Positions 1,604 to 16,555 of a DNA stretch of 22,015 bases are shown one piece after another; position 1 is the stretch's first letter; every line of letters begins with the position of its first letter. The translations under genes and the position numbers were made by a program. The stretch lies in IMG/VR virus record IMGVR_UViG_3300028797_000113. The stretch is one strand, 5' to 3'. Source of the DNA: a virus. Its lineage: Duplodnaviria > Heunggongvirae > Uroviricota > Caudoviricetes. A model generated the notes under the pieces. That model did no database searches and was not told the DNA's origin. It worked only from the letters and a program-made list of their open reading frames with translations.

Positions 1604-2800
1604 AGTGCAAGAATTAAAACCGCTTAGGTTAGACGGCTTATATGAACGTCACTCAAGGCGCACGTTAAGTGGCAACCCATCTTTAAGATGTCCATACGCA
1701 GTAGCGTGGTTGTGGATAATTCTCACACATAGACACGATATGCACAAGTCGAGTTGTTGCGAATGAGCGCACAACAAATGCTTGGAACAGATTTAGCGAC
1801 AAAACGTATCTTGGCGGAGTAGCATTGGTGCATAAAACCCTTGTCTGTTCAATAGTGGGGACACGACAGAGTGTAAAGACAACGTGTATAGCGTGTTGTG
1901 GGACAAGATGCCTAACATTAGTGAATGAGTATTTCGTGAACCGCATTTATCACGGGAAAGACGGTAAGTTGTCGGACTGAACAAGTTTGCGGGACTTGAA
2001 CCCACGTGGCAACCCTCAAGAAGTGTGTGCGTACTTCGACTGAACGAAAGAGTTAGTCAGTTTGGGCTTGGACAAGTAGGTTATGCATAAGTGAGCATCG
2101 TGGGCAAATAGTGTATGTGTTTGGGTGGCATACACTCATATTGGGACTGTCGACTTTGACACGTCGCCGACTTCTGTTCGGCGTAGTCCGTGGGTAACCT
2201 TTGGTTACGGCTATCCGTACCATTGGCACTCATTTAGAACCATAGGACAAGCGTGTACTTACGACTATCTATAAACAAGCGTGCAAGGATCACGCGTTGA
2301 TAGGTGGCAGTTCGTGGTGTGAGAACGACAAGCAGGAAGTCGTGGGGTGCAGAATAGTGCGCTTTACTCACACCACACAAGATACCAAAAACTTCAAGGT
2401 GCGTGTGATGATGTGTTGCGTCATAACGTACACATCATTATTCCCCTTGAGCGTCACTCACGCCAATGAAAAAACGACGATAAAAGTGTGGAGCGTGAGC
2501 CGCTATAAACCATAGGTGCAACTTACCATTAGCAATAATGGTTTCCGGCACAAGGGGCAGTTGGAGTAGGTGCTGTCGAAAAAATTGGTGGACTATGCCG
2601 ACCTTAACAGGCATAAGACAGTACACGAAAGTGTTGGTGCTGACCACATTAGCAACTGTTATCGGGTGCAACTCCCGATGGTAGCATTTCAGAAACGTCT
2701 AATAGAGCAAAGTGACTATGATAACACGTAGTTGCGTGGTCGCTTTCGCCGTAGACGTGCAACAACGGAAACGAACAAACGACGGAAAGGGGGTGTCGCT

Positions 2801-2860
2801 ATGATACCGCAGACAACTTGGGCAGACATTATGGATGCATATAACAATACCGACAAATAA
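2801..2860 (+). CDS. Putative 19-aa micro-protein (MIPQTTWADIMDAYNNTDK)
   Basis: GAAAGGGGGT RBS directly upstream; first ORF of the array. Confidence 0.45.
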   Translation: MIPQTTWADIMDAYNNTDK

Positions 2861-2887
2861 CGCAAATGCGTTGGAAAGGAAACGAAA

Positions 2888-3217
2888 ATGAAATACGTAA
2901 TCACGCAGGACTACCATAGCAACTATGTTGCAATAGACAAGAACGGAAACGCATACGTACACCGTCAAGGCACTATGTGTTATAGAGAACCGAAAATGAA
3001 GTGGTTTAACACACTTGAAGAAGCAAGGGAATTTGCAAACAAGGTGGCAGACCATCCACTTTGGGAACGCTTATATAGTCACGGCATAGACATATGTGAA
3101 GCGATAATTACACGTCACGTTGACGAATACGGAAATCGTTATACAACAGTTAACGCAGGCAAAATCATTTCCAGCGTGCCTGTAAAGAAATCGGATTATA
3201 GCAAATACTGTTGGTAA
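2888..3217 (+). CDS. Hypothetical phage protein (109 aa)
   Basis: GGAAAGGA RBS; contains the FNTLEEA motif. Confidence 0.85.
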   Translation: MKYVITQDYHSNYVAIDKNGNAYVHRQGTMCYREPKMKWFNTLEEAREFANKVADHPLWERLYSHGIDICEAIITRHVDEYGNRYTTVNAGKIISSVPVKKSDYSKYCW

Positions 3218-3237
3218 ACAACGGAAAGGAAACGCAA

Positions 3238-3642
3238 ATGGCTATGACAACATACTTCTACGTTGACAACGGAAAGTCACATATGGTGATGACCGACAAC
3301 AAAATGGAAATCGAACACGCAAGAGTTAGATACGGAAACGTGTTCTTCAACAAAAAAGACGCAGACGCTTTCGCTAATCAACCGCAACCGAAACGCGTTC
3401 GTCACTTGACGGATGAAGAACGGAAACAATGGGAACTTGAGCAAATGGCGTACGGAAAGAGCCAGACACCCGTAAGGGAAAAGGCAATAACGGAAATGAC
3501 ACCGTACGAACGCCTTGTTGCAGAGTTTGAGTTTGCTGCCCAATACGAAAATTGGTCGGAAACGGAATATAGACGGAAACGTAAAGCGTTCGATAGCAGA
3601 CATTGGTACGAACGCAAACAATATGAGCGTGCAAGCGCATAG
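3238..3642 (+). CDS. Hypothetical phage protein (134 aa)
   Basis: GGAAAGGA RBS before ATG 3238 (start trimmed from the track). Confidence 0.85.
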   Translation: MAMTTYFYVDNGKSHMVMTDNKMEIEHARVRYGNVFFNKKDADAFANQPQPKRVRHLTDEERKQWELEQMAYGKSQTPVREKAITEMTPYERLVAEFEFAAQYENWSETEYRRKRKAFDSRHWYERKQYERASA

Positions 3643-3673
3643 ATGTTAGATACAACGGAAAGGCGGTGATGCC

Positions 3674-3922
3674 GTGGCAACCATAGAATACACACGTATC
3701 TTGGAATTTGATACAGTAGACAAGGCAAAAGAAGCCCTTGAGCGTATGCTTAACGAACACGGAAACGATTCAACGTACATAATAAGCAACGCAATTCAAA
3801 CGGACGACAAAGTGATGTACTTTGAGCTGAACAACGGAAAACTATCAAAGACCGCAGACGTAAAGCACGTCGGAAAATGGAAACGCGGGTTTGATGAACG
3901 GTTTATGGGGGACAAAATATGA
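3674..3922 (+). CDS. Hypothetical phage protein (82 aa)
   Basis: AAGGCGGTGA RBS, GTG start; overlaps the next ATG. Confidence 0.8.
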   Translation: MATIEYTRILEFDTVDKAKEALERMLNEHGNDSTYIISNAIQTDDKVMYFELNNGKLSKTADVKHVGKWKRGFDERFMGDKI

Positions 3923-4044
3923 AAGGATATTATACGGGATATGCATACATGGGTTGGACAGGGAAATCATACAGGGCTTTTTCAAGCGAAGAAGAATATC
4001 GCGAGTGGTATGAAGAAAACGTGTACGATCCGGAATATTTGTAG
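3919..4044 (+). CDS. Small conserved-type phage protein (41 aa, MKGYYTGYAYMGWTGKSYRAFSSEEEYREW...)
   Basis: Not in the track; ATGA overlap with the upstream gene, GGGGG RBS. Matches a recurrent MKGYY...YMG...F.SE.EY small-protein pattern in Firmicutes phages. Confidence 0.8.
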   Translation: MKGYYTGYAYMGWTGKSYRAFSSEEEYREWYEENVYDPEYL

Positions 4045-4058
4045 GGAAAGGAGATAAT

Positions 4059-4358
4059 ATGATTATTACATACGAAATCGAAAAGACCACCACGATAAAG
4101 GTGGCATCTTTGGAAACTTTGGTTTATAAAACGCATACTGATGTTATTAAGTATATCGACAAAAAACGGAAAGATGTGCTTGAGGAATTTCGTAAAATGA
4201 CAAAGGCATATTCTGGTTGGAATATAGATGAGTATGATGTTGATAATACTTGTCCGTCTTATGTTGCCCACACTACAACCAACACATCGAGCAAAAAGGT
4301 TGAAATCTATATGCGTTCTGCGATGTATTACGAGAACGATTACGAGGGTATGATGTAG
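4059..4358 (+). CDS. Hypothetical phage protein (99 aa)
   Basis: AAAGGAG RBS. Confidence 0.85.
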   Translation: MIITYEIEKTTTIKVASLETLVYKTHTDVIKYIDKKRKDVLEEFRKMTKAYSGWNIDEYDVDNTCPSYVAHTTTNTSSKKVEIYMRSAMYYENDYEGMM

Positions 4359-4374
4359 GAAAGGAAGTGATTAA

Positions 4375-4551
4375 ATGGGAACACCTAACAGAAAGAGAAC
4401 GGAAACAGACTTTGTGACGGCTTATTGTTACTGCTACGGCACAAGCAGAGCGAAAGCAAAGGAAGTATATAAACGCGCAGATAACTCTTATATCAACGCC
4501 GTGATAGCGTCTTTTGAGAAAGATGTGATGTCGGCGTTTTGTGAAGATTAA
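4375..4551 (+). CDS. Hypothetical protein (58 aa)
   Basis: Not in the track; AAAGGAAGTGA RBS, MGTPNRKRTETDFVTAYCYCYG...; fills the gap in the array. Confidence 0.75.
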   Translation: MGTPNRKRTETDFVTAYCYCYGTSRAKAKEVYKRADNSYINAVIASFEKDVMSAFCED

Positions 4552-4567
4552 GAAAGGTGGTGACGGT

Positions 4568-4891
4568 ATGTACGCATACGTTTTAACCAACAAAGATACA
4601 AACGAAATACTTGGAATATACGCAACGCAAACAGCAGCAGACTATGATGACACAAGCGACGACAAGTTTGCGAACATCAACACACGAACGGAAAGAATTT
4701 TTGTGCAGAACGATTTAAGTCAACTTGCACACAGAATAACGCTTGCGATGGAGCAATTCGATCCTTATGACTTCGCAGATAGCGGTTATACGATAGAAGA
4801 AGCAGACGCGGAAAATTTGCGGATGTTGATGGAAGAACCAACGGAAATCATCAAAGGTTTATTAGACGCTATGGAAGAACTAATGGCGTAA
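4568..4891 (+). CDS. Hypothetical acidic phage protein (107 aa)
   Basis: GAAAGGTGGTGA RBS before ATG 4568; FDPYDFAD segment. Confidence 0.85.
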   Translation: MYAYVLTNKDTNEILGIYATQTAADYDDTSDDKFANINTRTERIFVQNDLSQLAHRITLAMEQFDPYDFADSGYTIEEADAENLRMLMEEPTEIIKGLLDAMEELMA

Positions 4892-4903
4892 AGGAGGTGC
4901 GAT

Positions 4904-5065
4904 ATGCCGAAAGCAATTTTCATCTGGGAACTTCCCAAAACGGAACGACTGACATATTACAAGCGCATTAAAGCGAAACTAATCGAAGAAAACGCGTTCT
5001 CTTATGAGAACCTTACAGACGCTATGAGCAATAAAATCGTAGATTTACCCTACGATATAATGTAG
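4904..5065 (+). CDS. Hypothetical protein (53 aa)
   Basis: Not in the track; AAGGAGGTG RBS, MPKAIFIWELPKTERLTYYKRIK... Confidence 0.8.
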   Translation: MPKAIFIWELPKTERLTYYKRIKAKLIEENAFSYENLTDAMSNKIVDLPYDIM

Positions 5066-5084
5066 ACCGAAAGGAAGTGATGAT

Positions 5085-5279
5085 ATGCCACTACAAAAAC
5101 CCGTTGCGAGATTTGTATTCGGTTCTTTTGAATATCGCGTGTGTTATTCCGTGTACGAGAACGACGGAAAGTTTGAAGTCCAATGGCACACCGACGACGA
5201 AGGCGGTTGTTTTGGAAAGCCGTTCGACACTTTAAACGACGCATATATGGCGATTCTTAATCGCTTCAGAACAATATAA
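5085..5279 (+). CDS. Hypothetical protein (64 aa)
   Basis: AAAGGAAGTGA RBS; FDTLNDA motif. Confidence 0.8.
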   Translation: MPLQKPVARFVFGSFEYRVCYSVYENDGKFEVQWHTDDEGGCFGKPFDTLNDAYMAILNRFRTI

Positions 5280-5296
5280 CACGGGGAGGTGTTTTT

Positions 5297-5371
5297 ATGA
5301 GAGAGATACCTATTCTCAACGGAAATGGCGGAACAATATATCTGCCAGAGGTGTTCTGTCCGCTGACTTGA
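5297..5371 (+). CDS. Putative 24-aa ORF, possibly a truncated remnant
   Basis: GGGGAGGT RBS; MREIPILNGNGGTIYLPEVFCPLT, followed by a ~77-nt gap. Confidence 0.35.
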   Translation: MREIPILNGNGGTIYLPEVFCPLT

Positions 5372-5448
5372 ACACGCAATAATTGAATAAGATGTCTGCG
5401 CTAACGGACACGCATACGGGCATGATCGAAAAAATGGGAGGACACATT

Positions 5449-5793
5449 ATGAAATCCAAAAAAATTTACACGCTTAACTTGACTATCGAAGAACATTGGA
5501 CACAAGACGAAGAAACGGAAGGCGTTGACATTAACGACTATGTTCGCGGTGTGTTTACATCTCTTGACAAGGCAATAGACGGCGCAAATTCAGTAATGGA
5601 AAGCGACGAGGATGATACAAAGGGAATCTTCATAATGGAATACGATACGGATAAAGTATCGTCGGGAAGATGTGTTGTGGGCTGGCTTAACGAAAACGGA
5701 AAGTTTTGGAAGTATTTTGAAGTAAAAGACGAAAAGCACTTTCTTTATAACCCAGACGGCAGTCCGTATTGTTCATACAAAAAGGAAGATTAA
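5449..5793 (+). CDS. Hypothetical acidic phage protein (114 aa)
   Basis: GGGAGG RBS before ATG 5449; GVFTSLDKA motif. Confidence 0.85.
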   Translation: MKSKKIYTLNLTIEEHWTQDEETEGVDINDYVRGVFTSLDKAIDGANSVMESDEDDTKGIFIMEYDTDKVSSGRCVVGWLNENGKFWKYFEVKDEKHFLYNPDGSPYCSYKKED

Positions 5794-5806
5794 GGAGGAA
5801 ACGGGA

Positions 5807-5968
5807 ATGCGTAACGAAAAAAAGAAAACGATTAAAGGCTTTAGAAAACAACTGAATACGATTAAGAGAAACTATATGTCAACTGGCGATCCGGAATACG
5901 CTATGCAGATGTCCGCTATTCAGGGCGTGATGTATGGGGCGTTCGAGCCGACAAGGCATTTTAAGTAA
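5807..5968 (+). CDS. Hypothetical basic protein (53 aa)
   Basis: Not in the track; TAAGGAGG RBS, MRNEKKKTIKGFRKQLNTIKR... Confidence 0.75.
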   Translation: MRNEKKKTIKGFRKQLNTIKRNYMSTGDPEYAMQMSAIQGVMYGAFEPTRHFK

Positions 5969-5989
5969 GAATAAACATAGGAGGCACGT

Positions 5990-6337
5990 ATGAATATTTA
6001 TGCGTATCAAGAAAAAAGTAACGGACGCGGAATGATTCACAACAAAATGCCGAATTTATGTTTCGGCTTTCATTATCTTCACGGAAAACTTGAAGACATG
6101 AACGGTTGTGACCTTTTTGGGATTCGCAAAAAAGACGAAGAAAAGCTAACCAAACGCAAAAAGGGTTGCGAAAGAGTAACAGTCATATTCCCTGACGGAA
6201 ATAAAACAGATGCAGACTTTTATTTTTGGACGCCAAAATATCAGGTGCATATTAAAGGTCTGGTTGTATTGCCAGACGATAATGACGCGGTGGAATATGC
6301 TACGGACTGCTATTACGCAGATGCAGCGGACATATAA
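5990..6337 (+). CDS. Hypothetical phage protein (115 aa)
   Basis: AGGAGG RBS. Confidence 0.85.
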   Translation: MNIYAYQEKSNGRGMIHNKMPNLCFGFHYLHGKLEDMNGCDLFGIRKKDEEKLTKRKKGCERVTVIFPDGNKTDADFYFWTPKYQVHIKGLVVLPDDNDAVEYATDCYYADAADI

Positions 6338-6348
6338 GGAGGTATGAT

Positions 6349-6789
6349 ATGCTGAATTATCACAGAAATGCAGACACGAACGTGTTGACCATTTACGAAG
6401 GACGTCGTGTGCTTTGTACCTTTTCGGATGTATTTGACGACGACGAAGCGAAAAGACTGTTCAAGGAAACCGCGTACGAGTACAACCAAGAACATCAGCC
6501 CAAGTATGATGACGTCGAAGTGGCATACGATTGGTCTAATCCGTTCGGAGTTAAGGTTGACGGAAAAAGACTATCGATCAACACGCTTGAACTTATAAAG
6601 AACTATGTACGCGCTTCGGAAATCGCAGATTTTTTGTGGAACGAATTTCCTAAAATACCCACAATGGAAGAAGCATTAGATTTAGCCGTAGAAATTCGCG
6701 ACTTGACTTATGAAGACGTCCCGGAAAGCGACGCCATAGCCGAAGTGCTTGACAAGTACGGATATTTGGAGGAGGTAGAAGATGAGTAG
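6349..6789 (+). CDS. Hypothetical acidic phage protein (146 aa)
   Basis: AAGGAGGT RBS. Confidence 0.85.
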   Translation: MLNYHRNADTNVLTIYEGRRVLCTFSDVFDDDEAKRLFKETAYEYNQEHQPKYDDVEVAYDWSNPFGVKVDGKRLSINTLELIKNYVRASEIADFLWNEFPKIPTMEEALDLAVEIRDLTYEDVPESDAIAEVLDKYGYLEEVEDE

Positions 6790-7051
6790 TGTTAGAGTAA
6801 CGCAACCCTTATATAGAGTTGCCGTTGAATATACAGACGAGGGGAACTATCGGACATACGAATACTCATATTACAGCGACTATGACAAGGCTTCAAAGGT
6901 AGTTGAACATATAAAACAATATCGGTATATCCGTATGCAGTATGGCGCAACAAAGATAACGCTCCCGCACCCGATTACGCGTGTCATTTTTGAAGAAGTA
7001 GGAGTGTTTGACAGACCGTTTGCGTACGGAAGATTTGCGGAGGAGTGGTAA
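6782..7051 (+). CDS. Hypothetical phage protein (89 aa)
   Basis: GGAGGAGGT RBS; overlaps the upstream stop. Confidence 0.85.
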   Translation: MSSVRVTQPLYRVAVEYTDEGNYRTYEYSYYSDYDKASKVVEHIKQYRYIRMQYGATKITLPHPITRVIFEEVGVFDRPFAYGRFAEEW

Positions 7052-7053
7052 AA

Positions 7054-7230
7054 ATGAAAGAGAAATTTAAAGGTTTTTGTTTCTTAAGTATTATGCCGTT
7101 GGTTATTTTATCGGCGGTATTTTTTGATAGCGGAATTACGAACGGATATGAAGTTATGCTTTTGCTTGGCTTTTTGAGTTTTATTATCGCAGCGTTTAAT
7201 TTCGCAACGGTGCTGATATTAGGGAATTAA
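7054..7230 (+). CDS. Small membrane protein with two predicted TM helices (58 aa)
   Basis: GGAGGAG RBS; hydrophobic stretches FCFLSIMPLVILSAVFF and VMLLLGFLSFIIAAFNFATVLIL. Confidence 0.8.
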   Translation: MKEKFKGFCFLSIMPLVILSAVFFDSGITNGYEVMLLLGFLSFIIAAFNFATVLILGN

Positions 7231-7242
7231 GGAGGATAAAAA

Positions 7243-7881
7243 ATGAGTTATTGGACTTATGTTAGGGGGTACATTAAAGTAGATTGCGTTGGTAGAACAC
7301 AGCCCGAAATCGAGTATATTCTTAAAAGTATTTTAGACCATATGCCACGCATTACTGGTTCAGAGGGAGACGTAACTGTCCACATAGTAAAGGCAGATGG
7401 TCACTCTTGTTCATCAAGTTGTGATGAGTATGATGATTGCACTAACAATCTAACTGATTGGTACGGAAATAAATCTTATGAAAGAGGTTGGTTAAGAACA
7501 CAACCGAGATTTTATTTGCTTCTTGAGGGTTCATTAAGGGACAGACACTTCGAACAGACACACAGGGAAACAATGAAATTCTTATGCAGACTGGCAAAAA
7601 GAATTTCTGTTGAAGATATACTAATTAAAGTGCAAGGCTATCAGCAGAACGCAATAATAGATAACGCAAAACCTTTTAAAGAAATGAACGAAATGCCGAG
7701 TTGGTGTAATGATACTCACGAACCTGCTTGGTGGGAACATCTTATGTGGAACAGATACAAAGACTCCGCACTACCATTAAGTTTATTAGTCAAATATTAT
7801 TATGACGAAGAAGCAGACGCAGAGTGGGACAAACAATTTAAAGTTAAGGAGAATAAAAACGGAGGTGGATGCCATGAATAG
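7243..7881 (+). CDS. Conserved-type hypothetical phage protein (212 aa, MSYWTYVRGYI...ITGSEGD...GSLRDR)
   Basis: TAAGGAGG RBS; long ORF. Confidence 0.9.
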   Translation: MSYWTYVRGYIKVDCVGRTQPEIEYILKSILDHMPRITGSEGDVTVHIVKADGHSCSSSCDEYDDCTNNLTDWYGNKSYERGWLRTQPRFYLLLEGSLRDRHFEQTHRETMKFLCRLAKRISVEDILIKVQGYQQNAIIDNAKPFKEMNEMPSWCNDTHEPAWWEHLMWNRYKDSALPLSLLVKYYYDEEADAEWDKQFKVKENKNGGGCHE

Positions 7882-8131
7882 CAAAGGCAAAAGACAGTAT
7901 TACAGATATATGGGTAACAGCGACGGATCGGGATGTCCGTATGGCATTGTGTTTAAATGCTACACAGACGAAGAATACGAATACTACAAACAATTTTACA
8001 GATTAGTGCCTGAAGTCAAATCAAGTACAAAGGCAAAACGCATAGCGATAGCAAAGGCGTCGTTGGCTATCGCGGGCATGATATGTGGAATTTCTAGAGG
8101 TGGATATGCAATAACGGAGGACAGATTATGA
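7874..8131 (+). CDS. Hypothetical phage protein (85 aa)
   Basis: GGAGGTG RBS before ATG 7874 (start trimmed). Confidence 0.8.
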   Translation: MNSKGKRQYYRYMGNSDGSGCPYGIVFKCYTDEEYEYYKQFYRLVPEVKSSTKAKRIAIAKASLAIAGMICGISRGGYAITEDRL

Positions 8132-8463
8132 TAGTCTACGAAGCGCGTTATTATGGTGGAGAATACGAAGATAAATTTGACAATTCACTTGGCATTTATG
8201 ATGACTTGCAACTTGCGGTGGAGAAATGCCTGCGAACAATGGAACGCTTTCAGAAATCAACGTGGGATGACGTAGATTATATAGAACATAAGGAAACACG
8301 TTGCTTCTATATTCATGCGTGGGAAGTAAATGTTGGTATGTCGGAGCGCAATATACGCATTTGGCGTCGTCGAAAAGACGGAAAATTCTTTGACATCCCC
8401 GATACAGACGAAGAAGAAGAAGACGAATACGATCCGTGGACAGATAAAGAGGAGGAAAAATAA
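8128..8463 (+). CDS. Hypothetical protein with acidic C-terminal tail (111 aa)
   Basis: GGAGG RBS, ATGA overlap; ends DTDEEEEDEYDPWTDKEEEK. Confidence 0.85.
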   Translation: MIVYEARYYGGEYEDKFDNSLGIYDDLQLAVEKCLRTMERFQKSTWDDVDYIEHKETRCFYIHAWEVNVGMSERNIRIWRRRKDGKFFDIPDTDEEEEDEYDPWTDKEEEK

Positions 8464-9408: not shown

Positions 9409-9409
9409 T

Positions 9410-9655: not shown

Positions 9656-9670
9656 GGAGGTATGCGTCCT

Positions 9671-10096
9671 ATGAGAAAAGAATTACAGGCTTTCGAGATT
9701 TGGATGGGTAACGAGAGAGATTGTCCCAACAGAAAATTCATCCGAGTATCGCGTTGGATTAAGTTGCAGACCAACTACAACCCCAACAAGAGAAACGCAT
9801 TATGGGATTATGTAACAGACGCGTATGGTTTTCATCCGTATCAAGCCGCCTTTAACGCAAAGGATGGTTTGTTCCTTGATTTCTTTAGGTTCAACGGAAC
9901 CACCTATGCGCTTGAACAGTTTATCCGCTTTGGCAGTATTGCGGACTCAATAGGACACGCCGAAGGATATATCGAAGATAAACTGAAGCATTTTCTCTGC
10001 GGCTATGACGCAAACGATTACTTTCATCCGTTGTATATCGAATTTGATGAGTGGGGAGAATACGTCAGATTATATGTTTGTGAGGAGGGTAGATGA
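9671..10096 (+). CDS. Hypothetical phage protein (141 aa)
   Basis: TAAGGAGGT RBS spacing favours ATG 9671 over 9662. Confidence 0.85.
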   Translation: MRKELQAFEIWMGNERDCPNRKFIRVSRWIKLQTNYNPNKRNALWDYVTDAYGFHPYQAAFNAKDGLFLDFFRFNGTTYALEQFIRFGSIADSIGHAEGYIEDKLKHFLCGYDANDYFHPLYIEFDEWGEYVRLYVCEEGR

Positions 10097-10097
10097 T

Positions 10098-10529
10098 ATG
10101 GAGTTTTATAGCATTGACAAAAATATGCTTGACAATGAAGTAGGAGATACGGTGTGTGTCATATTGACGATGGATGATTATGACTGGGCAACATACAACC
10201 TAAAGATGCATTTTCGTATCAAAGATGGGGCTATACTTGTTCTTGAAGAAGAATATTCTGCGTTTGATACAGCAGATTACAAGCTTAAGAGAATCGAAGG
10301 CGACACCATAACAGAAACCAAGTTTAGCGCGACTTCTGAATGGGCGACACGGCATATCAAACAGAATTTGAACAGACATTTAGACGTCTTTGACAAGGCA
10401 GAGTGGTTTATTGGCGATACGGATTTGTTTATTGACCAGTACAACGACATTATTGCCTTATTATGTGTCGCAGAACAGAACGCACCCCAAACAAAAACAT
10501 ATACGAAGGGAGAAAATGACAATGATTAA
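10098..10529 (+). CDS. Hypothetical acidic protein (143 aa)
   Basis: GAGGAGGG RBS before ATG 10098 (start trimmed). Confidence 0.85.
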   Translation: MEFYSIDKNMLDNEVGDTVCVILTMDDYDWATYNLKMHFRIKDGAILVLEEEYSAFDTADYKLKRIEGDTITETKFSATSEWATRHIKQNLNRHLDVFDKAEWFIGDTDLFIDQYNDIIALLCVAEQNAPQTKTYTKGENDND

Positions 10530-11220
10530 ACATATTATTAGACAAGTGCCAGACGAACACGCTGACTGGAGATTTTATTTTGATGGGGACTGTTTCAATG
10601 AAAACAGCGGGGATTATAACAACACTATTTTCCCGAGAACGTGGGATCATCATAGGTGGTGGGCTTGTGTAAACGAAGATGAATTTAAGACCATCCACAA
10701 TGAAATGGTAGATGTCTTTTATGATGTCAACGAGAACATTGGCTACGGCTACAAGAACGTAAAGGAAGTTATGCACGATTATAAGTTGCCATATAATCCG
10801 AAAAGCGCTCACGAGTTAAAGGTAATTGCCGAACTTGACTATGACGATTCGGAAGTTATCGCAAGATATATGACAATTAAGACGGGCAAAAAATGGGATG
10901 TTGCTGGAGGTAATGGATATTGTCAGGGCGACTTTTGTGAGATGGTTTACTGTACGGAAAACTACGACGAAAAAGCCGCAAAGGTTCTTGTTGATATGGT
11001 GCTTGGTTGCGGTCACGAATATGGAATTATCGAAGTCGACGAAGACGGTAACGAAGGAGAATCTTGTTGGGGCTTCTTTGTAACCGACACAGAAGCGTGG
11101 AGAGATGAAGACATTAAGGCTCTTATTTGCGACCGTGAAGGACTTAATCCCGAAGAAACGCAACTCGAAATGGTTGACGGAAGTACAACGCACGTAACAT
11201 ATTCATACAGAACAGCATAA
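10516..11220 (+). CDS. Conserved-type acidic hypothetical phage protein (234 aa; GYCQGD motif)
   Basis: AAGGGAG RBS before ATG 10516 (start trimmed). Confidence 0.85.
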   Translation: MTMIKHIIRQVPDEHADWRFYFDGDCFNENSGDYNNTIFPRTWDHHRWWACVNEDEFKTIHNEMVDVFYDVNENIGYGYKNVKEVMHDYKLPYNPKSAHELKVIAELDYDDSEVIARYMTIKTGKKWDVAGGNGYCQGDFCEMVYCTENYDEKAAKVLVDMVLGCGHEYGIIEVDEDGNEGESCWGFFVTDTEAWRDEDIKALICDREGLNPEETQLEMVDGSTTHVTYSYRTA

Positions 11221-11241
11221 GGAGGTCATAAGGAAATAATT

Positions 11242-11523
11242 ATGAGAGAGATTTGGATTATTGGTTGCGGTGGTTCAGACGCTGACGGCGTTGGCTTTGA
11301 GTTTGCGGTCGGGGATGTTGACGACATTAAACAGATTCTGTTTGACAAGGTAGAGCGTGACAGAGAGTACGACGAGGAAAATTGGACTCACGGCACGGAA
11401 AGTGTTGACGAAGTCGCAGAAAGAGTGACTGGCACAGTATATGCGTTCAGTTGCTTTAACGATTATCATATCGACTATGAAGCAAAACCTTTAAGAACGA
11501 TCACAATGGATGCTTGTATTTAA
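11242..11523 (+). CDS. Hypothetical acidic phage protein (93 aa; YHIDY motif)
   Basis: AAGGA RBS; tiles the array. Confidence 0.85.
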   Translation: MREIWIIGCGGSDADGVGFEFAVGDVDDIKQILFDKVERDREYDEENWTHGTESVDEVAERVTGTVYAFSCFNDYHIDYEAKPLRTITMDACI

Positions 11524-11535
11524 GGAGGTATAAGT

Positions 11536-11946
11536 ATGGAACCCATCTACACAAGAAAAGTTGGTAATGCAGTAATTAAAGTCTACGAAGACTTGACCGA
11601 CATTAACACATCTTTGTTGTTGCCGTCTGGTTTAATGATAGCAACGTATGAAGATGACACCACGGAAACCTATCTGTCTTACGAAGTACAGGGCGAAATC
11701 GACATACAGTTTAAGGGCGACTGGTATGAAGACCCGACCGAATACCCCGACGAATTAGTCGAAATGCTTAAAAACGGAGCGGCTGGAAATGAAGACATAG
11801 TTGTTATTGAAAACAACTGGTTCGAGGGGATGTTTTGGAGCGACAAGGGATGGTGCGGTACTTGTTTTTGTTCGGATGTGGTAGACATTGAAGGGATGTC
11901 GCCCGAACAGATGGCAGATGATATACAGGAGTGGGCTAAAGCATAA
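11536..11946 (+). CDS. Hypothetical acidic phage protein (136 aa)
   Basis: TAAGGAGGT RBS. Confidence 0.85.
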   Translation: MEPIYTRKVGNAVIKVYEDLTDINTSLLLPSGLMIATYEDDTTETYLSYEVQGEIDIQFKGDWYEDPTEYPDELVEMLKNGAAGNEDIVVIENNWFEGMFWSDKGWCGTCFCSDVVDIEGMSPEQMADDIQEWAKA

Positions 11947-11960
11947 TAAGGAGGTGCATT

Positions 11961-12263
11961 ATGGATAATTTAATCATTAGGGAATTGACACCCGAAGACA
12001 TTGCAAAAATGGAAAGAAATATTTTCCACGAAGACAAGGCAGAAACGGTCGCCAGACTGTTTGACACTCTCAAAACAACGAGAGCATTTCATAACATCTT
12101 AACAGATATGACTTATGAAGAGCGCGACAACGGAGATGAAACCGTGACGTGCTTTTTTAAGTATAGCAGCGGTTCGGCTGACGCCGTTCGCATTAACGTA
12201 ACGGCAGATTCTTGCGTGGCTTTAATACAGGACGTGTGGAAGCGCCTTTACGAAATGATTTAA
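11961..12263 (+). CDS. Conserved-type hypothetical protein (100 aa; INVTADS motif)
   Basis: TAAGGAGGTG RBS. Confidence 0.85.
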   Translation: MDNLIIRELTPEDIAKMERNIFHEDKAETVARLFDTLKTTRAFHNILTDMTYEERDNGDETVTCFFKYSSGSADAVRINVTADSCVALIQDVWKRLYEMI

Positions 12264-12343
12264 CAACTGAATAAGGGAGTCGCTCAATAAGTGGAAGTGC
12301 GATAAGAAACGTAAACAATTTATTTTATAAGGAGAACAAAACT

Positions 12344-13228
12344 ATGCAGAAATTTATTGATGATTTATTTAACATTATGTCAGAGAGATTTGACGGAACA
12401 ATTACAAAAAGGATGATAAGCAGAGCAAATGTCGGAGAAACGACTGGGTTTGTGCTGCGCAAAGAAGGAAGTAACTGCGCGCCGACAATTTATGTTGAGA
12501 GTTATTATGACGCTTACGCCTCCGGCTATGCAACAGTAGAAGAAATCGCAGATGAGATTTTCAAATCGATCGATGAAAATCCCGAACCTACCACAGATGT
12601 AGACATTAACCAGCTTACCAACTGGGAGTTTGTCAAAGACAAGATTAGACCCGTGTTAATTTCAACTGTCGGAAACGAAGAATACATTAAGAATTTGGCA
12701 TATTCCAAGACTCGAACCGACCTTGTTATTCTCTACCAGATTGAGTTAGTGAATGACGGAAACGCTTGCCAGTGCATTAAGATTCAGAAAGCCGCATTAA
12801 AGATATACGGAGTTACAGTAACGGAACTCAAAAAGGTAGCATTTCAGAATTTGGATGGACACATCAGATTCTTAAATATGGCTCAGGAATTAGGTTTCCT
12901 TCTTGGCGCACCCGAAGAAGAAGAAATGGAAGATTTTCCCATGTGGGTATTGTCCAATGATGCTAAAACTTACGGAGCAGCGGCTATCTTCTCAAGCAAG
13001 GCAATGAAAGAAGTCACCACAAAAATGAAGACGAACCAGTTATATATTTTGCCGTCATCTATTCACGAAGTAATAATCTTGGACGCCACAAAGCCCGACA
13101 CCGCAGGAAAGACAGAAGAATTAAAGGCAATGGTTAGGGAAGTGAACGCCACACAGGTCGCACCTAAAGACAAACTGTCCGACAATGTGTACTTCTATAA
13201 CGGAAAGACCATTGAAGTTGTAGAATAA
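12344..13228 (+). CDS. DUF5688 family protein
   Basis: APTIYVESYY near the N-terminus; C-terminal LYILPSSIHEVIIL...MVREVN...LSDNVYFY signature; AAGGAG RBS. Confidence 0.85.
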   Translation: MQKFIDDLFNIMSERFDGTITKRMISRANVGETTGFVLRKEGSNCAPTIYVESYYDAYASGYATVEEIADEIFKSIDENPEPTTDVDINQLTNWEFVKDKIRPVLISTVGNEEYIKNLAYSKTRTDLVILYQIELVNDGNACQCIKIQKAALKIYGVTVTELKKVAFQNLDGHIRFLNMAQELGFLLGAPEEEEMEDFPMWVLSNDAKTYGAAAIFSSKAMKEVTTKMKTNQLYILPSSIHEVIILDATKPDTAGKTEELKAMVREVNATQVAPKDKLSDNVYFYNGKTIEVVE

Positions 13229-13235
13229 TTAAATC

Positions 13236-13260
13236 GGGGCGGGTAACCGCCCCTTTTATT
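13236..13260 (+). terminator. Intrinsic terminator
   Basis: GGGGCGG-GTAA-CCGCCCC followed by TTTTATT. Confidence 0.85.
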
Positions 13261-13273
13261 CAAGGAGGTTTAT

Positions 13274-13609
13274 ATGAAAACATTATCGCTTCAGAATTAT
13301 GGCACAAAACACAAGTTAGTTGTTAGCATTGACAAGTATGCGAACAATGGAAACCTTGCCATTTCACTACTGGAAAAGACGGAGTATGGATATGAGCCGT
13401 ACGCCTTTCTTACGACCAACACGGGACTGTTCTTGCCCGACGATAACCTCGCAGTTGTCGACACCAATAACTGCCCGTGGGCTGAACGCTTAATCGAGAG
13501 ATACGGACTGGGCGAGTTCTTCTCGGTAACCGCGTCTGGTTTTTGCAGATACCCCGTTTATTCGTTCGATATGGAAAAGTTAAAAGAGTATGAATTAAAG
13601 GAGGCGTAA
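13274..13609 (+). CDS. DUF4313 family protein
   Basis: NGNLAISL...EPYA.LT.N...VDTNNCPW...SGFCRYPVYSFD signature; AAGGAGGT RBS. Confidence 0.8.
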   Translation: MKTLSLQNYGTKHKLVVSIDKYANNGNLAISLLEKTEYGYEPYAFLTTNTGLFLPDDNLAVVDTNNCPWAERLIERYGLGEFFSVTASGFCRYPVYSFDMEKLKEYELKEA

Positions 13610-13614
13610 TTCTT

Positions 13615-13710
13615 ATGAAAGAAGTATTTATGCAAGACATTATGGCGGCTTATGAAGAAAATAGAGCCAATGATGAAGATCAGTTTAAATTAGAGAACGG
13701 ATATATGTAA
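13615..13710 (+). CDS. Putative 31-aa protein
   Basis: AAGGAGG RBS; MKEVFMQDIMAAYEENRANDEDQFKLENGYM. Confidence 0.55.
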   Translation: MKEVFMQDIMAAYEENRANDEDQFKLENGYM

Positions 13711-13726
13711 CTAAAGGAGGTGCCTT

Positions 13727-14176
13727 ATGTACACAAAATTAAAAGAAATCTATGTAAAAACAAGGCTGGATATGTTTGCTATGGCGGTCAGTTATCTTAT
13801 TGATACTGGGTATAGCGCCGTAGAACAGATTACTGACGAAGAAATTGCCGAAATGGAAGGCAACGGACTGATGACAAAAGAATTTGTGCAAGGGCTGGTA
13901 AAACTCGCGAGAGAAATCACACGAGCAACCGAACACGGTACGGAAGTCATACAGTTTTGTTCTGCTTTAAGCGTGTTTGAAACCACATACTACACAAACG
14001 GAGAACACTTAAATCACAACACGCTCGAAGAAAGCGCCGGGAAACTTCTATCGCACATAGTGTACGACGAAGACATTATTATGCCCAGTTCTTCTGAAGA
14101 AGAAACCAAAGAACAGTTAGCGGATTTGCTTGATATAGATATTGAGGACATAGACAAACTGTTAGAAAGGGGGTAA
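13727..14176 (+). CDS. Hypothetical acidic protein (149 aa)
   Basis: AAGGAGGTG RBS. Confidence 0.85.
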   Translation: MYTKLKEIYVKTRLDMFAMAVSYLIDTGYSAVEQITDEEIAEMEGNGLMTKEFVQGLVKLAREITRATEHGTEVIQFCSALSVFETTYYTNGEHLNHNTLEESAGKLLSHIVYDEDIIMPSSSEEETKEQLADLLDIDIEDIDKLLERG

Positions 14177-14179
14177 GTG

Positions 14180-14353
14180 ATGGCTCATAATGAGAAACTT
14201 GACCAGATTTTAGTTGAGCAAAAGAAAAAGGGCGAAAATTATGCAGACTGGCAGAAAGAACATTATCCCGTCAAGGCTTCTCACACGGCAACAAGGGACT
14301 TTGTAATGTCAAGAAGCGTAATGCGAAGATTAGAAATTCAAAAAGGAGAGTAA
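14180..14353 (+). CDS. Hypothetical protein (57 aa)
   Basis: Not in the track; AAAGGGGGT RBS, MAHNEKLDQILVEQKKKGENYADW... Confidence 0.65.
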   Translation: MAHNEKLDQILVEQKKKGENYADWQKEHYPVKASHTATRDFVMSRSVMRRLEIQKGE

Positions 14354-14354
14354 A

Positions 14355-14588
14355 ATGGCAGATGAGATCAAATGCGAAGTCATAAAAGATTATGGCGTAA
14401 TTGCAACAAAGGGCGAGTATGAACTTAAACTTCAGAAGGTGGCGTGGAACGGTAGAGAACCCAAATACGACATTCGCGCTTGGAAAGGCGAGAAGTGTGG
14501 TAAGGGCGCTACTTTTACAGACGAAGAACTTAAAGGTCTGTATGACAAACTTAAGGAACTCGACAAAAAGGGTATCTTTAAAGAATAA
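14355..14588 (+). CDS. YdbC / PC4-like single-stranded nucleic-acid-binding protein (77 aa)
   Basis: IKCEVIKDYG...VAWNGREPKYDIRAW...GKGATFTDEEL signature. Confidence 0.85.
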   Translation: MADEIKCEVIKDYGVIATKGEYELKLQKVAWNGREPKYDIRAWKGEKCGKGATFTDEELKGLYDKLKELDKKGIFKE

Positions 14589-14630
14589 GTGGCCAGCACG
14601 CCTCTTAACAATGCGTACCAAGTTTGGTCA

Positions 14631-14660
14631 GGGGAGCCTTTGGCGCTCCCCTTTTTCTTT
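14631..14660 (+). terminator. Intrinsic terminator
   Basis: GGGGAGC (14631-14637) / GCTCCCC (14645-14651) followed by TTTTTCTTT. Confidence 0.8.
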
Positions 14661-14674
14661 CAAGGAGGAACATT

Positions 14675-14845
14675 ATGACAATAGAATACAAGGGACAAGT
14701 AAATGTATATCCCTACAAAGGAGATGTCGTGAACATAGAAATCCGCAGATATGGAGTTGATGATTACGAGCTGGTAGATATTGACAACGACACTTCACAG
14801 CGTGGGACTTTGATGGATATATTCGATTACATACAACAGTATTAA
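14675..14845 (+). CDS. Hypothetical protein (56 aa)
   Basis: AAGGAGG RBS before ATG 14675 (start trimmed). Confidence 0.8.
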   Translation: MTIEYKGQVNVYPYKGDVVNIEIRRYGVDDYELVDIDNDTSQRGTLMDIFDYIQQY

Positions 14846-14857
14846 AAGGAGGTTTTT

Positions 14858-15256
14858 ATGATGCGAATTTGTGGTTGTGTTGATGTTATAGCGGTGGCTT
14901 TAAACACTACTTTTGCGTCCGACGAATTACCGAAAATAAATATGCTCGAAAGATGCAAAGAGGATTTTGAATACCGTCTAACTTGCTGGGATAATGACAT
15001 ATTGTTCGACGATTATTATGATATGGCTGACTTCATTGTGGAAACTGAAAATCTTTCCAAAGAAGAGGATGCCATATACGACAAGGCAGACGAGTTATGT
15101 GCCTATATCCGCGAACAATGGACAAATAAACTGCCCATTATTACAGAGGTTGAGTTTGGTTCATTAGAGGATGAATGTTGGGTAGACACGATTTATATCG
15201 TGGACTGCGATTATAAAGAAATGTACAAACAGATGAAAGAAAAAGAAGGAGAATAA
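14858..15256 (+). CDS. Hypothetical acidic protein (132 aa)
   Basis: AAGGAGGT RBS. Confidence 0.85.
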   Translation: MMRICGCVDVIAVALNTTFASDELPKINMLERCKEDFEYRLTCWDNDILFDDYYDMADFIVETENLSKEEDAIYDKADELCAYIREQWTNKLPIITEVEFGSLEDECWVDTIYIVDCDYKEMYKQMKEKEGE

Positions 15257-15260
15257 AACT

Positions 15261-15686
15261 ATGGGAAACAGAGCGGTAATTACAACAAAAGAAAACTTTG
15301 AGAACAACGGAGTTGGTGTGTATTTGCACTGGAACGGCGGTAGAGATAGCGTTGAAGCGTTTCTTACCTACTGCGCCTTAAAACAGTACAGAGAGCCGGA
15401 AACTGATAACTATGGATGGGCAAGATTATGTCAGGTGATCGGAAACTTCTTCGGAGGTACTTGCTCAATAGGTATAGACACAGTCAACAGATTAGACTGC
15501 GACAACTACGACAACGGAGTTTATTTTATTGAGAACTGGAAAATCGTAGGCAGAAAATACTTCCGCGGCAGAGAACAGGACGCGTATAGGCTGATAGATA
15601 TGCTTGTCGAAATTGATGAGAAGCAGCCTAAAGATGAACAGTTGGGCAAAAGAAAAATCGAAGAACTTTTAGGAGGTCTGGAATAA
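15261..15686 (+). CDS. Conserved-type phage hypothetical protein (141 aa; MGNRAVI...YLHWNGG...DNGVY)
   Basis: AAGGAG RBS; recurrent phage early-gene motif of unknown function. Confidence 0.88.
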   Translation: MGNRAVITTKENFENNGVGVYLHWNGGRDSVEAFLTYCALKQYREPETDNYGWARLCQVIGNFFGGTCSIGIDTVNRLDCDNYDNGVYFIENWKIVGRKYFRGREQDAYRLIDMLVEIDEKQPKDEQLGKRKIEELLGGLE

Positions 15687-15687
15687 T

Positions 15688-15861
15688 ATGGATTTAGTAA
15701 AGATTACTTGTTACGGAAAAACAGATGTGATGGAACGCGCTGACGCAATAAAATTATATGCTGAAGGCGTGTTCGCTTGCGAAGGAAGTGAGCGTGAAAG
15801 ATACGCAACGATACTTGCGGGATTAAATGCCGGGCTTAATGAAGTAAGTGATGAATATTAA
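15688..15861 (+). CDS. Conserved-type small protein (57 aa; ITCYGK...CEGSERERY)
   Basis: Not in the track; AGGAGGT RBS. Confidence 0.8.
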   Translation: MDLVKITCYGKTDVMERADAIKLYAEGVFACEGSERERYATILAGLNAGLNEVSDEY

Positions 15862-15873
15862 GGAGGTGCTTTA

Positions 15874-16023
15874 ATGTTAAGGATTGTTTTTAGGTACAGA
15901 GATGAACTGAGCGGATGGGAATGGAGAACCCAGAGATGTACCGTGTCAAGTGTTGATGAGTGCATCCGAATTTATGGTCTAAATGACTGTGATTATGAAA
16001 TTATAAGCACAGAGGAGGTGTAA
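15874..16023 (+). CDS. Conserved-type small protein (49 aa; FRYRD...WEW...C.V.S..EC..IYGL)
   Basis: Not in the track; TAAGGAGGTG RBS. Confidence 0.8.
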   Translation: MLRIVFRYRDELSGWEWRTQRCTVSSVDECIRIYGLNDCDYEIISTEEV

Positions 16024-16025
16024 AT

Positions 16026-16544
16026 ATGGCAGAAATTAAATGCGAAATCAAAAAAGATTTAGGAAGTCTTGGCGGTAAAAAGAAACTGACATATACCGCT
16101 TGGAACGGGAACGCTCCGAAGTTTGATATTAGAGACTGGTATGAGAACGGCAATGCTGGAAAGGGCGTGACTTTGGACAAGGCAGAGTTGGAAAGCCTTT
16201 ATAAATTATTGCAGACCGTCTTTGAGTCAGCCGAAGAGGAAACAGAAGAAGTAATCGAAAATCCTTGGGATGAAGAAGAAGCGAAGCCCGCACCGAAAGA
16301 TAAAACACTGGAACTTTTAAACAAATATCCCGACGAGGTACAGCAGAAATTTGACGCCCTTGATGAATTATTTAAAGGCTTTACGGTTGAAAAGGCATAC
16401 GGCAAAATGCCCTTTGCAGACGGAAACAGACTTCAGTATTCAGTCAAGAAAGGAAAGTTTCCGATATATGAAAGCACGTTGACAAAGTTAGGACTTAATT
16501 GGTTCATAACAGATATTGGTAACTTATATATTTATACACTGTAG
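16026..16544 (+). CDS. YdbC / PC4-like protein with acidic linker and extra C-terminal domain (172 aa)
   Basis: IKCEIKKDLG...AWNGNAPKFDIRDW...GKGVTLDKAEL; GAGGAGGTG RBS. Confidence 0.85.
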   Translation: MAEIKCEIKKDLGSLGGKKKLTYTAWNGNAPKFDIRDWYENGNAGKGVTLDKAELESLYKLLQTVFESAEEETEEVIENPWDEEEAKPAPKDKTLELLNKYPDEVQQKFDALDELFKGFTVEKAYGKMPFADGNRLQYSVKKGKFPIYESTLTKLGLNWFITDIGNLYIYTL

Positions 16545-16555
16545 GAGGTGATAAT

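Follow-up and report, generated by a model that had tools for sequence, protein, structure and literature searches.

An uncultured phage from rumen or gut (G000; 129.7 kb, hereafter the ~130-kb genome) repeats a short asymmetric word, ACGGAAA, many times along the sense strand of its early operon. Selection acts on this array, a genuine cis-acting signal with ACGGAAA as its 7-nt recognition word. We analyzed a stretch of 22,015 nt of this genome, referred to here as the window. To the further reading, that the array is a transcription-oriented, multi-copy set of binding sites for a clade-specific factor which would gate the first early genes, we give roughly even weight. The features of the early region, all on the plus strand, are these:

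680-709, plus: best sigma-70-like promoter match (TTTACA-18-TATAAT), a consensus match only, upstream of the RNA region and the array
945-2758, plus: putative structured-RNA region, almost ORF-free, with one plus copy (1127) and one reverse copy (2542)
2766-3876, plus: dense core, 16 CGGAAA copies, mostly ACGGAAA, in 1.1 kb, beginning 8 nt past the structured-RNA region
2783-2791, plus: ACGGAAAGG copy, fused to the extended Shine-Dalgarno sequence of the 19-aa leader ORF
2801-2860, plus: conserved 19-aa leader ORF, start of the protein-coding early block
3222-3230, plus: copy merged with the ribosome-binding site for gene 3238-3642
3238-3642, plus: early gene encoding 134 aa, its 7 copies spread over three frames
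3656-3664, plus: copy merged with the ribosome-binding site for gene 3674-3922
3877-6727, plus: second zone, 13 copies, ~4.5 per kb
6728-16426, plus: gradient tail, 14 copies, ~1.5 per kb, with no plus copies from 16427 to the end of the window

CGGAAA occurs 44 times on the plus strand of the window and three times on the minus strand (572, 2542 and 16458). The plus copies comprise the 16 of the dense core (2766-3876), 13 at 4167-6722, 14 at 7464-16421, none at 16427-22015, and one extra copy at 1127. Counted per 2 kb down the array they number 19, 10, 2, 2, 4, 1, 4, 0, 0 and 0. Density is greatest at the head of the early operon and declines over 15-25 kb. Neighboring copies lie 17-380 nt apart within translated sequence, and 24 of the 29 head copies are inside genes. 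Density is higher in intergenic (~15 per kb) than in coding sequence (~6.5 per kb). A first-pass annotation of this DNA had given counts and coordinates for the motif, all of which were correct on recount, including the seven copies in three frames of gene 3238-3642 and the CG that directly follows 6 of the first 16 copies. The fusion of the motif to early ribosome-binding sites, also claimed there, was borne out by three copies (2783, 3222 and 3656) that run into Shine-Dalgarno sequences.

These numbers exceed chance expectation. Dinucleotide shuffles of the window gave 15.7 ± 3.6 copies on both strands, compared with 47 observed, and the 10 kb after the operon head holds 34 copies against 1-2 per 5 kb in other plus-coded regions of the same genome with similar GC/AT skew. 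Under synonymous shuffling the 12 coding copies of the dense core compare with 5.0 ± 1.4 expected, and a further set gave 12 against 4.3. A codon-preserving null had been named beforehand as a test that could refute the proposal, and the excess persists under it. With a dicodon shuffle, which keeps amino acids, codon usage and dinucleotides, we observed 24 copies at 2.8-6.8 kb against 10.3 ± 2.2 expected, with all three frames in excess (3, 8 and 13 copies in frames 0, 1 and 2, against 1.1, 2.4 and 6.8). Taken separately, the coding copies of the dense core (12 against 6.8 ± 1.3), the second zone (12 against 5.3 ± 1.6) and the tail (14 against 7.1 ± 2.3) were likewise enriched, while control words such as ACGC and AACG were not, or only weakly, above this null. 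An unbiased word scan returned CGGAAA as the top 6-mer (z 6.9) and ACGGAAA as the top 7-mer (z 6.1). Back-translation of the head proteins with background codon usage yielded 3.3 copies where 24 are present; for the rest of the genome the expectation was met (24 vs 26). Since tripeptides able to encode ACGGAAA ([NDYH]G[KN]) are enriched 4x in the head with G/K/N content unchanged, the word also shapes the proteins. The earlier claim of a strand-polarized signal at the nucleic-acid level, graded from the early operon head, is supported by these analyses.

The word is also present on the early strand of eight related phage contigs; the array is clear in six and weak in two (G003 and L013). The first-pass annotation had held that absence of the motif from orthologous early regions would tell against it; instead the array recurs in relatives, and its conservation as an aggregate property is supported by comparison of these sequences. 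Counts on the early strand against the opposite strand were 42:3 in L044, 29:0 in L045, 12:0 in L046 and 30:1 in L047, as well as 17:2 over the whole 17.5-kb contig L007, where 16 of the 17 fall within its early 3.4 kb. The gradient was seen in the clear-array contigs that are long enough, as in G002, where the first 8.8 kb contain 20 copies and the last 15 kb just 3. The early genes of these relatives are mostly non-homologous or turned over; selection persists even as the genes are exchanged. No word ranked higher in the unbiased scan of G000, and in those of G002 and L007 it came first or close to first. Individual copies are more often conserved than control hexamers (83% vs 64%, 62% vs 43% and 67% vs 45%), and they also come and go: the 2783-2791 copy has no counterpart at the equivalent position of L007 (ATGGAAAGG) or L008, and homologues of the 134-aa gene contain 8, 1 and 7 CGGAR copies, mostly at non-aligned positions, indicating turnover under selection for copy number.

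Part of the excess is compositional. The head is T-poor and rich in C-ending codons, its CpG observed/expected ratio is 1.58 against 1.10, its codon usage is distinct (AAC 0.80, GAC 0.70, TAC 0.65, GGA 0.62), and ACG is enriched 2.6x in general; this region-wide shift accounts for part of the enrichment, which counts against the binding-array reading. The word might then be a by-product of strong selection for translation or composition in those early genes that are expressed most, possibly with a horizontal origin of the segment as well, in which A-rich, T-poor, CpG-rich sequence, C-ending and GGA, AAA and GAA codons and turn-rich small proteins generate it with no dedicated reader. Amino-acid sequence and local codon usage do account for over half of the raw 17-fold excess, and the gradient could mirror expression level. 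However, we consider this explanation unlikely: a 2.3-fold excess (z ~6) in three frames is left when amino acids, codon usage and dinucleotides are held fixed, compositionally similar words show no such excess, intergenic copies are the denser ones, and word-capable tripeptides are enriched at constant amino-acid composition. Furthermore, the same exact word tops the scans in relatives that have lower CpG and different genes, and its copies are conserved above control hexamers.

The word itself is sharply bounded. Information content is ~0 outside A-C-G-G-A-A-A, and one-base neighbors are not enriched (AGGAAA and TGGAAA ~2x, compared with 17x for CGGAAA). Copies elsewhere in the genome number 26 sense, 3 antisense and 1 intergenic, the minus-strand late operon included, which indicates that orientation follows transcription on both arms. 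On the binding-array reading, many weakly selected and individually replaceable copies would be kept on the sense (non-template) strand for a factor that is most probably phage-encoded and specific to this phage clade, with the dense array providing avidity beyond that of a single 7-mer and distinguishing this phage region from the chromosome of the host. It is possible, if somewhat doubtful, that the factor, bound to DNA ahead of RNA polymerase, forms an orientation-dependent roadblock of the stoperator type; binding to nascent early mRNA, with control of its stability or translation, is a slightly more doubtful variant. One candidate reader is the 134-aa early protein, which co-occurs with the array, having homologues in 6/6 clear-array relatives, and whose own gene is the most densely marked; no homologue was found in the weak-array relatives G003 and L013. 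We tentatively suggest that a small clade-specific reader such as this protein gates passage from the giant 5' RNA to the lytic early genes, and such a gate might work as an avidity-based roadblock or as an RNA-level immunity or timing switch.

Our search among the phage proteins identified no reader or repressor. The 134-aa protein gave no informative family or fold match, a tblastn search of G000 with the phi105 repressor returned nothing, the one XRE (HTH_3) protein (G000 12043-12390) has no conserved counterpart in G002, and the RNA-embedded protein has no homologue in the relatives. Further points count against a binding array: dsDNA repressors usually need more than 7 bp, the predicted promoter at 680-709 is free of copies, predicted RNA shows them with no preference for single-stranded positions, the arrays of G003 and L013 are weak, and the Bacillus SPbeta-like phage BUCT082 has no ACGGAAA array.

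A Chi-like role in end protection or recombination is quite unlikely in our estimation. Here the host AddAB enzyme would switch from degradation to RecA loading at ACGGAAA or its complement, and copies near the pac end would protect injected or rolling-circle DNA, which would circularize via terminal redundancy. The Chi of Firmicute AddAB is the host's own over-represented, replication-skewed word. In a Butyrivibrio MAG (G001), our only candidate host-clade genome and one which may not represent the true host of G000, ACGGAAA is neither over-represented nor replication-skewed (observed/expected 0.92, strand split 71:34 and ordinary skew in 385 kb; 554 occurrences in the whole genome vs 519 for a reversed control word), and the skew of its complement is wrong for a Chi word. 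The word is ~30-80 times sparser in the chromosome of this candidate host than in the phage array. On the other hand, 5-8 nt asymmetric words in one orientation near a genome end are the pattern reported for Chi-rich phages (PMC12315714), and ACGGAAA, an asymmetric word of 7 nt with no flanking information, is of Chi size. In E. coli phage LLS, 20 of the 23 Chi sites are actively oriented, half of them in the terminal 22%, and Pseudomonas phage MD8 has 32:0 (PMC12315714). The SPbeta pac or opening point lies between yonR and yonP-yonO (bioRxiv 10.1101/2021.11.22.469490). In this phage a YonO-like gene adjoins a divergent intergenic region, and the position homologous to an SPbeta-like pac, beside yonP-yonO, is 2-3 kb from the array, making it plausible, by analogy with SPbeta, that the array lies near a virion DNA end. 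The gradient length of 14-25 kb would suit a series of headful ends, and copy turnover with selection on number is expected for Chi as well. Nevertheless, the array starts abruptly past the RNA gene and not at the putative end, background-level copies track gene direction on both arms, Chi orientation would require packaging from pac into the early operon, and AGCGG, the Chi word of B. subtilis, has no terminal gradient in BUCT082.

Very unlikely, in our view, is a host RNA-binding factor that is titrated by, or regulates, the early mRNA, be it CsrA bound by a sponge, a sequence-specific endoribonuclease of host or phage in a T4 RegB-like shut-off of early mRNAs, or a factor drawn by a decoy of 23S rRNA 2054-2060. 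ACGGA does fit A(N)GGA, the copies fused to ribosome-binding sites form tandem ACGGA-AAGGA overlapping the Shine-Dalgarno sequence, and the candidate host MAG encodes CsrA (G001:C6, 89.5 bits). The 7-nt specificity is also typical of RNA-binding proteins and MazF-type RNases. To our knowledge ACGGAAA has no cognate nuclease, and we identified no nuclease candidate. The CsrA titration offered in the first-pass annotation is not supported, nor is a CsrA/RsmA sponge generally, because A(N)GGA cores as a class are not enriched and the C is strictly specified (ACGGA 5.5x; AAGGA 1.1x, ATGGA 1.0x, AGGGA 2.0x); moreover, no CsrA gene was found in the phage. In predicted RNA folds the copies were no more unpaired than composition-matched 7-mers (P = 0.72), so that the GGA loop presentation expected of a CsrA sponge is not predicted. 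The same folds, together with a CG after just 8 of the 44 copies, give no support to the proposed CG-GAAA-CG mini-hairpin. The original interpretation is upheld in part, as to the polar, graded nucleic-acid signal and its aggregate conservation; its suggestions of DNA internalization, protection and antitermination are guesses. For the rRNA decoy, ACGGAAAG equals 23S rRNA 2054-2061 (PMC12887398). A 7-mer match in ~4.5 kb of rRNA has a chance of about one in four.

KOPS/SRS translocase guide words are 8 nt and strongly skewed along host replichores, and we rejected this role for ACGGAAA, the skew and frequency of which are ordinary in the G001 and G318 samples.

Selection on a short nucleic-acid word here overrides synonymous codon choice and biases the tripeptide content of early proteins, a caution that small early ORFs can bear sequence constraints unrelated to protein function. 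Such arrays mark early operon heads and probable genome ends in uncultured phages. If true, a dense, graded, sense-strand array would be a previously undescribed phage regulatory layer, a prospect that we regard as less than probable. Should a reader be found, it would define a novel means by which temperate phages infecting Lachnospiraceae-type hosts in gut and rumen time or silence the genes they express first, or protect first-entering DNA, and it might give the neighboring giant RNA a function.

Among known systems, the CsrB/RsmZ sponges of CsrA and the GGAG targets of T4 RegB are repeated short purine-rich RNA words, and as in those systems some ACGGAAA copies overlap early-gene Shine-Dalgarno sequences. 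The array differs from them in the C before GGA and the AA after it, in lacking predicted loop presentation, and in lying within translated sequence. It resembles SPBRE, a 15-bp motif bound by MrpR at about 10 SPbeta promoters (PMC10516654), as a repeated element of the early or regulatory region of an SPbeta-type temperate phage, but SPBRE is neither graded nor intragenic. With Chi-rich phages (E. coli LLS and P1, Pseudomonas MD8; PMC12315714) it shares short polar words that point one way, gather near a genome end, run through coding sequence and are gained and lost; unlike Chi, the word is not prominent in the candidate host MAG, either in number or in replication skew. The phi105 operator GACGGAAATACAAG, as given in PMC1934351 (citing Van Kaer et al. 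1989), has an identical ACGGAAA core in asymmetric direct repeats co-oriented with early transcription, and we located 3 exact copies and 1 near copy at NC_004167 27977-28373. That site, as described there, is 14 bp with 4 copies at the immunity region, whereas the array conserves just the 7-mer; a phi105-type operator/repressor system was rejected, as the 7-nt core alone is shared and G000 has no phi105-like repressor. L5-type stoperators are a known case in which many asymmetric, oriented sites halt elongation, and in L5 inversion of the sites abolishes their function (PMC9283540, PMC1934351). Stoperators are, however, 13 bp, bound by a two-domain monomeric repressor, spread genome-wide mainly in short intergenic gaps, and in one case overlap an early promoter, whereas the array has a 7-nt word with no flanking information and no known repressor homologue, is mostly intragenic and steeply graded from the operon head, and has no copy at the predicted promoter. 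We do not place it in the full stoperator class, which is 13-bp, intergenic and promoter-overlapping. What it does share with the stoperators of cluster A mycobacteriophages (L5, Bxb1, TipsytheTRex) is many asymmetric copies along the transcription units of a temperate phage, in an orientation that follows transcription.

Our recount of CGGAAA upheld every count and coordinate of the first-pass annotation: the window holds 44 copies on the + strand and three on the - strand. Of the former, 16 lie in 2766-3876, another 13 extend to 6722 and 14 more to 16421, after which the final 5.6 kb is empty; the gene at 3238-3642 alone carries seven copies in three frames. Since the 5-kb bins after the operon head contain 19 and 15 copies, and other +-coded parts of the phage genome, alike in GC and AT skew, hold 1-2 per 5 kb, strand composition is not the explanation. 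Against the other +-coded background, the 4.1-kb head of the early operon (∼2.8-6.8 kb) has 29 copies of CGGAAA where 1.7 were expected, and 24 of ACGGAAA where 1.0 was expected. Copies per 2 kb from the head number 19, 10, 2, 2, 4, 1, 4, 0, 0 and 0, and intergenic copies (5 in ∼330 nt) are denser than coding copies. The word itself is A-C-G-G-A-A-A; A or G precedes ∼60% of copies, and information content further out is nil. Because the flanks are unrelated, the copies are not part of a longer repeat. One-base neighbours were not enriched (AGGAAA 1.9x, TGGAAA 2.0x, CGGAAG 0.8x, CGGAGA 0 copies, versus 17x for CGGAAA). Copy spacings, checked for helical or codon phasing, gave nothing notable.

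The suggestion that the signal lies at the nucleic-acid level was borne out, as the excess persisted in all frames under a null preserving codons and amino acids. Shuffling of synonymous codons gave 5.0 +/- 1.4 copies against 12 observed at 2.8-3.9 kb, and 4.3 +/- 1.6 against 12 at 3.9-6.8 kb. Under a dicodon shuffle, which keeps the amino-acid sequence, codon usage and all dinucleotides, the pooled head had 24 copies versus 10.3 +/- 2.2 and the 6.8-16.5 kb interval 14 versus 7.1 +/- 2.3; by frame, 3/8/13 were observed versus 1.1/2.4/6.8. An unbiased scan of all words under the same null ranked CGGAAA (z 6.9) and ACGGAAA (z 6.1) first, and the CpG-containing control words ACGC, AACG and ACGG were not, or only weakly, above it. 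Back-translation of the head proteins with the genome's background codon usage predicted 3.3 copies against 24 observed, versus 26 expected and 24 observed for the remaining + genes. Head proteins show a 4-fold enrichment of [NDYH]G[KN], the tripeptides able to encode the word in the frame it uses most, at unchanged G, K and N contents, indicating that the word bends protein sequences too. We also considered that the array is a by-product of composition. The head (window 2700-6800) is strongly depleted in T (AT skew 0.3) and favours C-ending codons, with a usage rich in AAC, GAC, TAC and GGA; its CpG observed/expected ratio is 1.58, versus 1.10 elsewhere, and a weaker CpG rise occurs at the same place in the relative G002. 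Much of the raw excess can be put down to composition; the frame-independent, word-specific remainder cannot. We consider it quite probable that the word is a selected, cis-acting recognition word.

The window corresponds to bases 95340-117354 of one 129,668-bp virus record, among whose large ORFs are matches to phage DNA polymerase, primase-helicase, terminase and tail proteins. Its + genes run from about window 900 and carry on into the record's first 40 kb; the - genes form a late block at 40-95 kb. The genes have strong Shine-Dalgarno sequences of Firmicute type, and one relative was found inside a MAG labelled Butyrivibrio. The later genes of the window (PcfJ, PcfK, DUF5688, PC4-like) are similar to those of leading-region or early anti-defence sets. 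Comparison of ∼20 early proteins with Pfam and PHROGs yielded nothing informative, Rfam and tRNA scans of the window and a megablast search of the early region against phages returned no match, and relatives of the early proteins were not found in IMG/VR. Phage tRNAs were noted (tRNA-Asn(GUU), a CUA-anticodon suppressor-type tRNA, tRNA-Gln(UUG) and a tRNA-Thr(AGU)-like gene; L001 5168-6073, L005 11049-11123), none of which explains the word. Two strong, intrinsic-terminator-like hairpins on the + strand inside the early block (13236-13253 and 14630-14652) suggest that there are several transcription units, and the motif does not become dense again downstream of them. The first large gene of the late block, divergent from the early operon, is the following:

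G000 (the phage genome) 91934-94528, - strand: 864-aa distant relative of YonO-type single-chain RNA polymerases (phrog_8308), just left of the window

This protein matches Enterocloster phages, a Bacillus SPbeta-like phage and phage c-st, shows 86-90% identity in close relatives and, among 401 genomes from the candidate host family, is present in 23. Eight related contigs were found through it, and then through homologues of the 134-aa early protein (3238-3642). Clear arrays were present in six relatives.

CGGAAA copies in relatives with a clear array (early strand:other strand)
L044 (∼93% DNA identity): 42:3
L045: 29:0
L046: 12:0
L047: 30:1
L007: 17:2 across the entire 17.5-kb contig, 16 of these 17 falling within the early 3.4 kb
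G002 (complete genome, 116 kb): 20 copies within the initial 8.8 kb of the early operon, followed by 9, 6 and 3 per successive 8-15 kb

The expectation that related early regions would carry the motif thus held, with the array on the early strand of relatives whose early-gene content is largely different: the early DNA of L007, L008 and G002 cannot be aligned to the window except in small patches, and the relatives have few early proteins in common. Under the dicodon null no 7-mer of G002 ranked above ACGGAAA, which was close to the top in L007; CGGAG makes up one third of CGGAR copies in G002. Counts per 2 kb drop from the head in every locus that is long enough (two further examples being 10, 9, 4, 4, 2 and 12, 10, 4, 4). 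Arrays were weak in G003/L008 and in L013, a contig of the Butyrivibrio MAG. L012 and the G318 prophage have a different layout, and the latter (56% YonO identity) was discarded as a comparison for its unlike GC and layout. The Bacillus SPbeta-like phage BUCT082 has no ACGGAAA array.

Intact copies amounted to 30 of 36 in L044, versus 64% of control hexamers, and to 62% versus 43% in L045 and 67% versus 45% in L047, three comparisons that are not mutually independent; individual copies are thus moderately conserved. The one early gene common to G000, G002 and L007 has 8, 1 and 7 copies respectively, only one or two at aligned positions, and the ribosome-binding-site copy at 2783 is absent from the orthologous site of L007. 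This is what would be seen with numerous replaceable sites, each under weak selection, where the number is what counts. Among the few DNA patches kept across divergent relatives is a conserved 19-aa leader ORF (MIPQTTWADIMDAYNNTDK; within 2801-2877, homologues in L007 and L008/G003), directly after the structured-RNA region, with a small hairpin (AACGCAAATGCGTT) 3′ of it in the same interval. In G002, a 787-aa early gene without a Pfam family (L021 9303-11666, - strand) bears 14 ACGGAR copies; its 354-aa neighbour bears six, and has a weak, sub-threshold match to the peptidase M20 Pfam family (22.4 bits, cut-off 24.6).

As to mechanism, we infer each step, and put the chances at about even that the word works in the direction of transcription, its many copies forming an array to which a clade-specific factor in control of the first early genes would bind. 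The array starts 8 nt after the upstream structured RNA (945-2758, +), which suggests that it separates this RNA from the lytic early genes. Such a factor would either form a roadblock on DNA or act on the nascent mRNA; we hold each of these to be less likely than not, with a slight lean to the roadblock. Avidity and discrimination from the host chromosome would come from the dense array, the 7-mer alone being insufficient, and a read-through gate would require a promoter-proximal gradient.

A live rival is a Chi-like word clustered at a genome end, as Chi-rich phages carry their words in one orientation and clustered at the ends. The equivalent intergenic region of SPbeta, which separates yonR from yonP-yonO, contains the pac or genome-opening point (bioRxiv 10.1101/2021.11.22.469490); by analogy pac would fall here at window ∼100-900, and the array probably lies ∼2-3 kb away, which keeps the Chi reading alive. 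It would, however, require packaging to run in a particular direction and ACGGAAA to be the Chi word of the host. In BUCT082, the B. subtilis Chi has no terminal gradient. A terminator-like hairpin (TTTCCGACGGTCCGGGAA with a T-run; 572-598) sits in the putative pac region, on the upstream side of the early promoter; it includes one of the three reverse-complement copies and is kept in L044 and L047. A Chi, KOPS or uptake word of the host was rejected: in 385 kb sampled from the candidate host MAG, which may not be the true host, the word had an observed/expected ratio of 0.92 and ordinary skew, and across that whole MAG, with the same proviso, it was as frequent as the reversed control word. 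In the phage head the word is 30-80 times denser than in this MAG. No close prophage was found in 401 genomes of the candidate host family (identity 58% or less). A 40-bp tandem repeat with ACGGAAAGG at the start of a MAG contig (L022 300-440; G001:C1) is probably unrelated.

CsrA titration, also proposed by the first-pass annotation, fared poorly: among A(N)GGA words only the C-containing one is enriched, and in predicted local RNA folding the word is no more exposed than composition-matched 7-mers (P = 0.72). The candidate host MAG encodes CsrA, and none was found in the phage. Reading of the motif by the upstream RNA, or by the protein embedded in it, found no support. Guide pairing was rejected, as UUUCCG occurs once in that region (2542) and not at all in that of L045, L047 or L007; the embedded 132-aa protein was rejected as a conserved reader, tblastn having found no homologue in any relative. 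The 3′ part of the RNA region repeats a GGTGCAAC-type word (∼2515, 2664, 2755), and GGGTGC and GTGCAAC are likewise enriched in L007. ACGGAAAG corresponds to 23S rRNA 2054-2061 (PMC12887398), a match that is probably coincidental. Fossil ribosome-binding sites were dismissed because GG does not preferentially follow internal copies; a search of the MAG for a 16S 3′ tail able to lengthen Shine-Dalgarno pairing as far as ACGG turned up no 16S end. The supposed CG-GAAA-CG mini-hairpin failed, CG following only 8 of the 44 copies.

On co-occurrence only, the 134-aa early protein is a candidate reader of the word, being present in all six clear-array relatives and not found in G003 or L013; its AlphaFold model (pLDDT 78, pTM 0.36) had no PDB match by Foldseek at E <= 0.001. 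The XRE protein at G000 12043-12390 was set aside as it is not conserved in G002, and a phi105-type repressor because none is encoded here. Oriented multi-copy sites are known from cluster A mycobacteriophages, in which the immunity repressor binds more than 20 13-bp stoperators that are oriented with transcription and fail when inverted (PMC9283540; PMC1934351). In the immunity region of the Bacillus phage phi105, the operator GACGGAAATACAAG occurs as three exact copies and one near copy, in direct repeats co-oriented with early transcription. This operator includes exactly ACGGAAA, but nothing past the 7-mer is conserved in our array.
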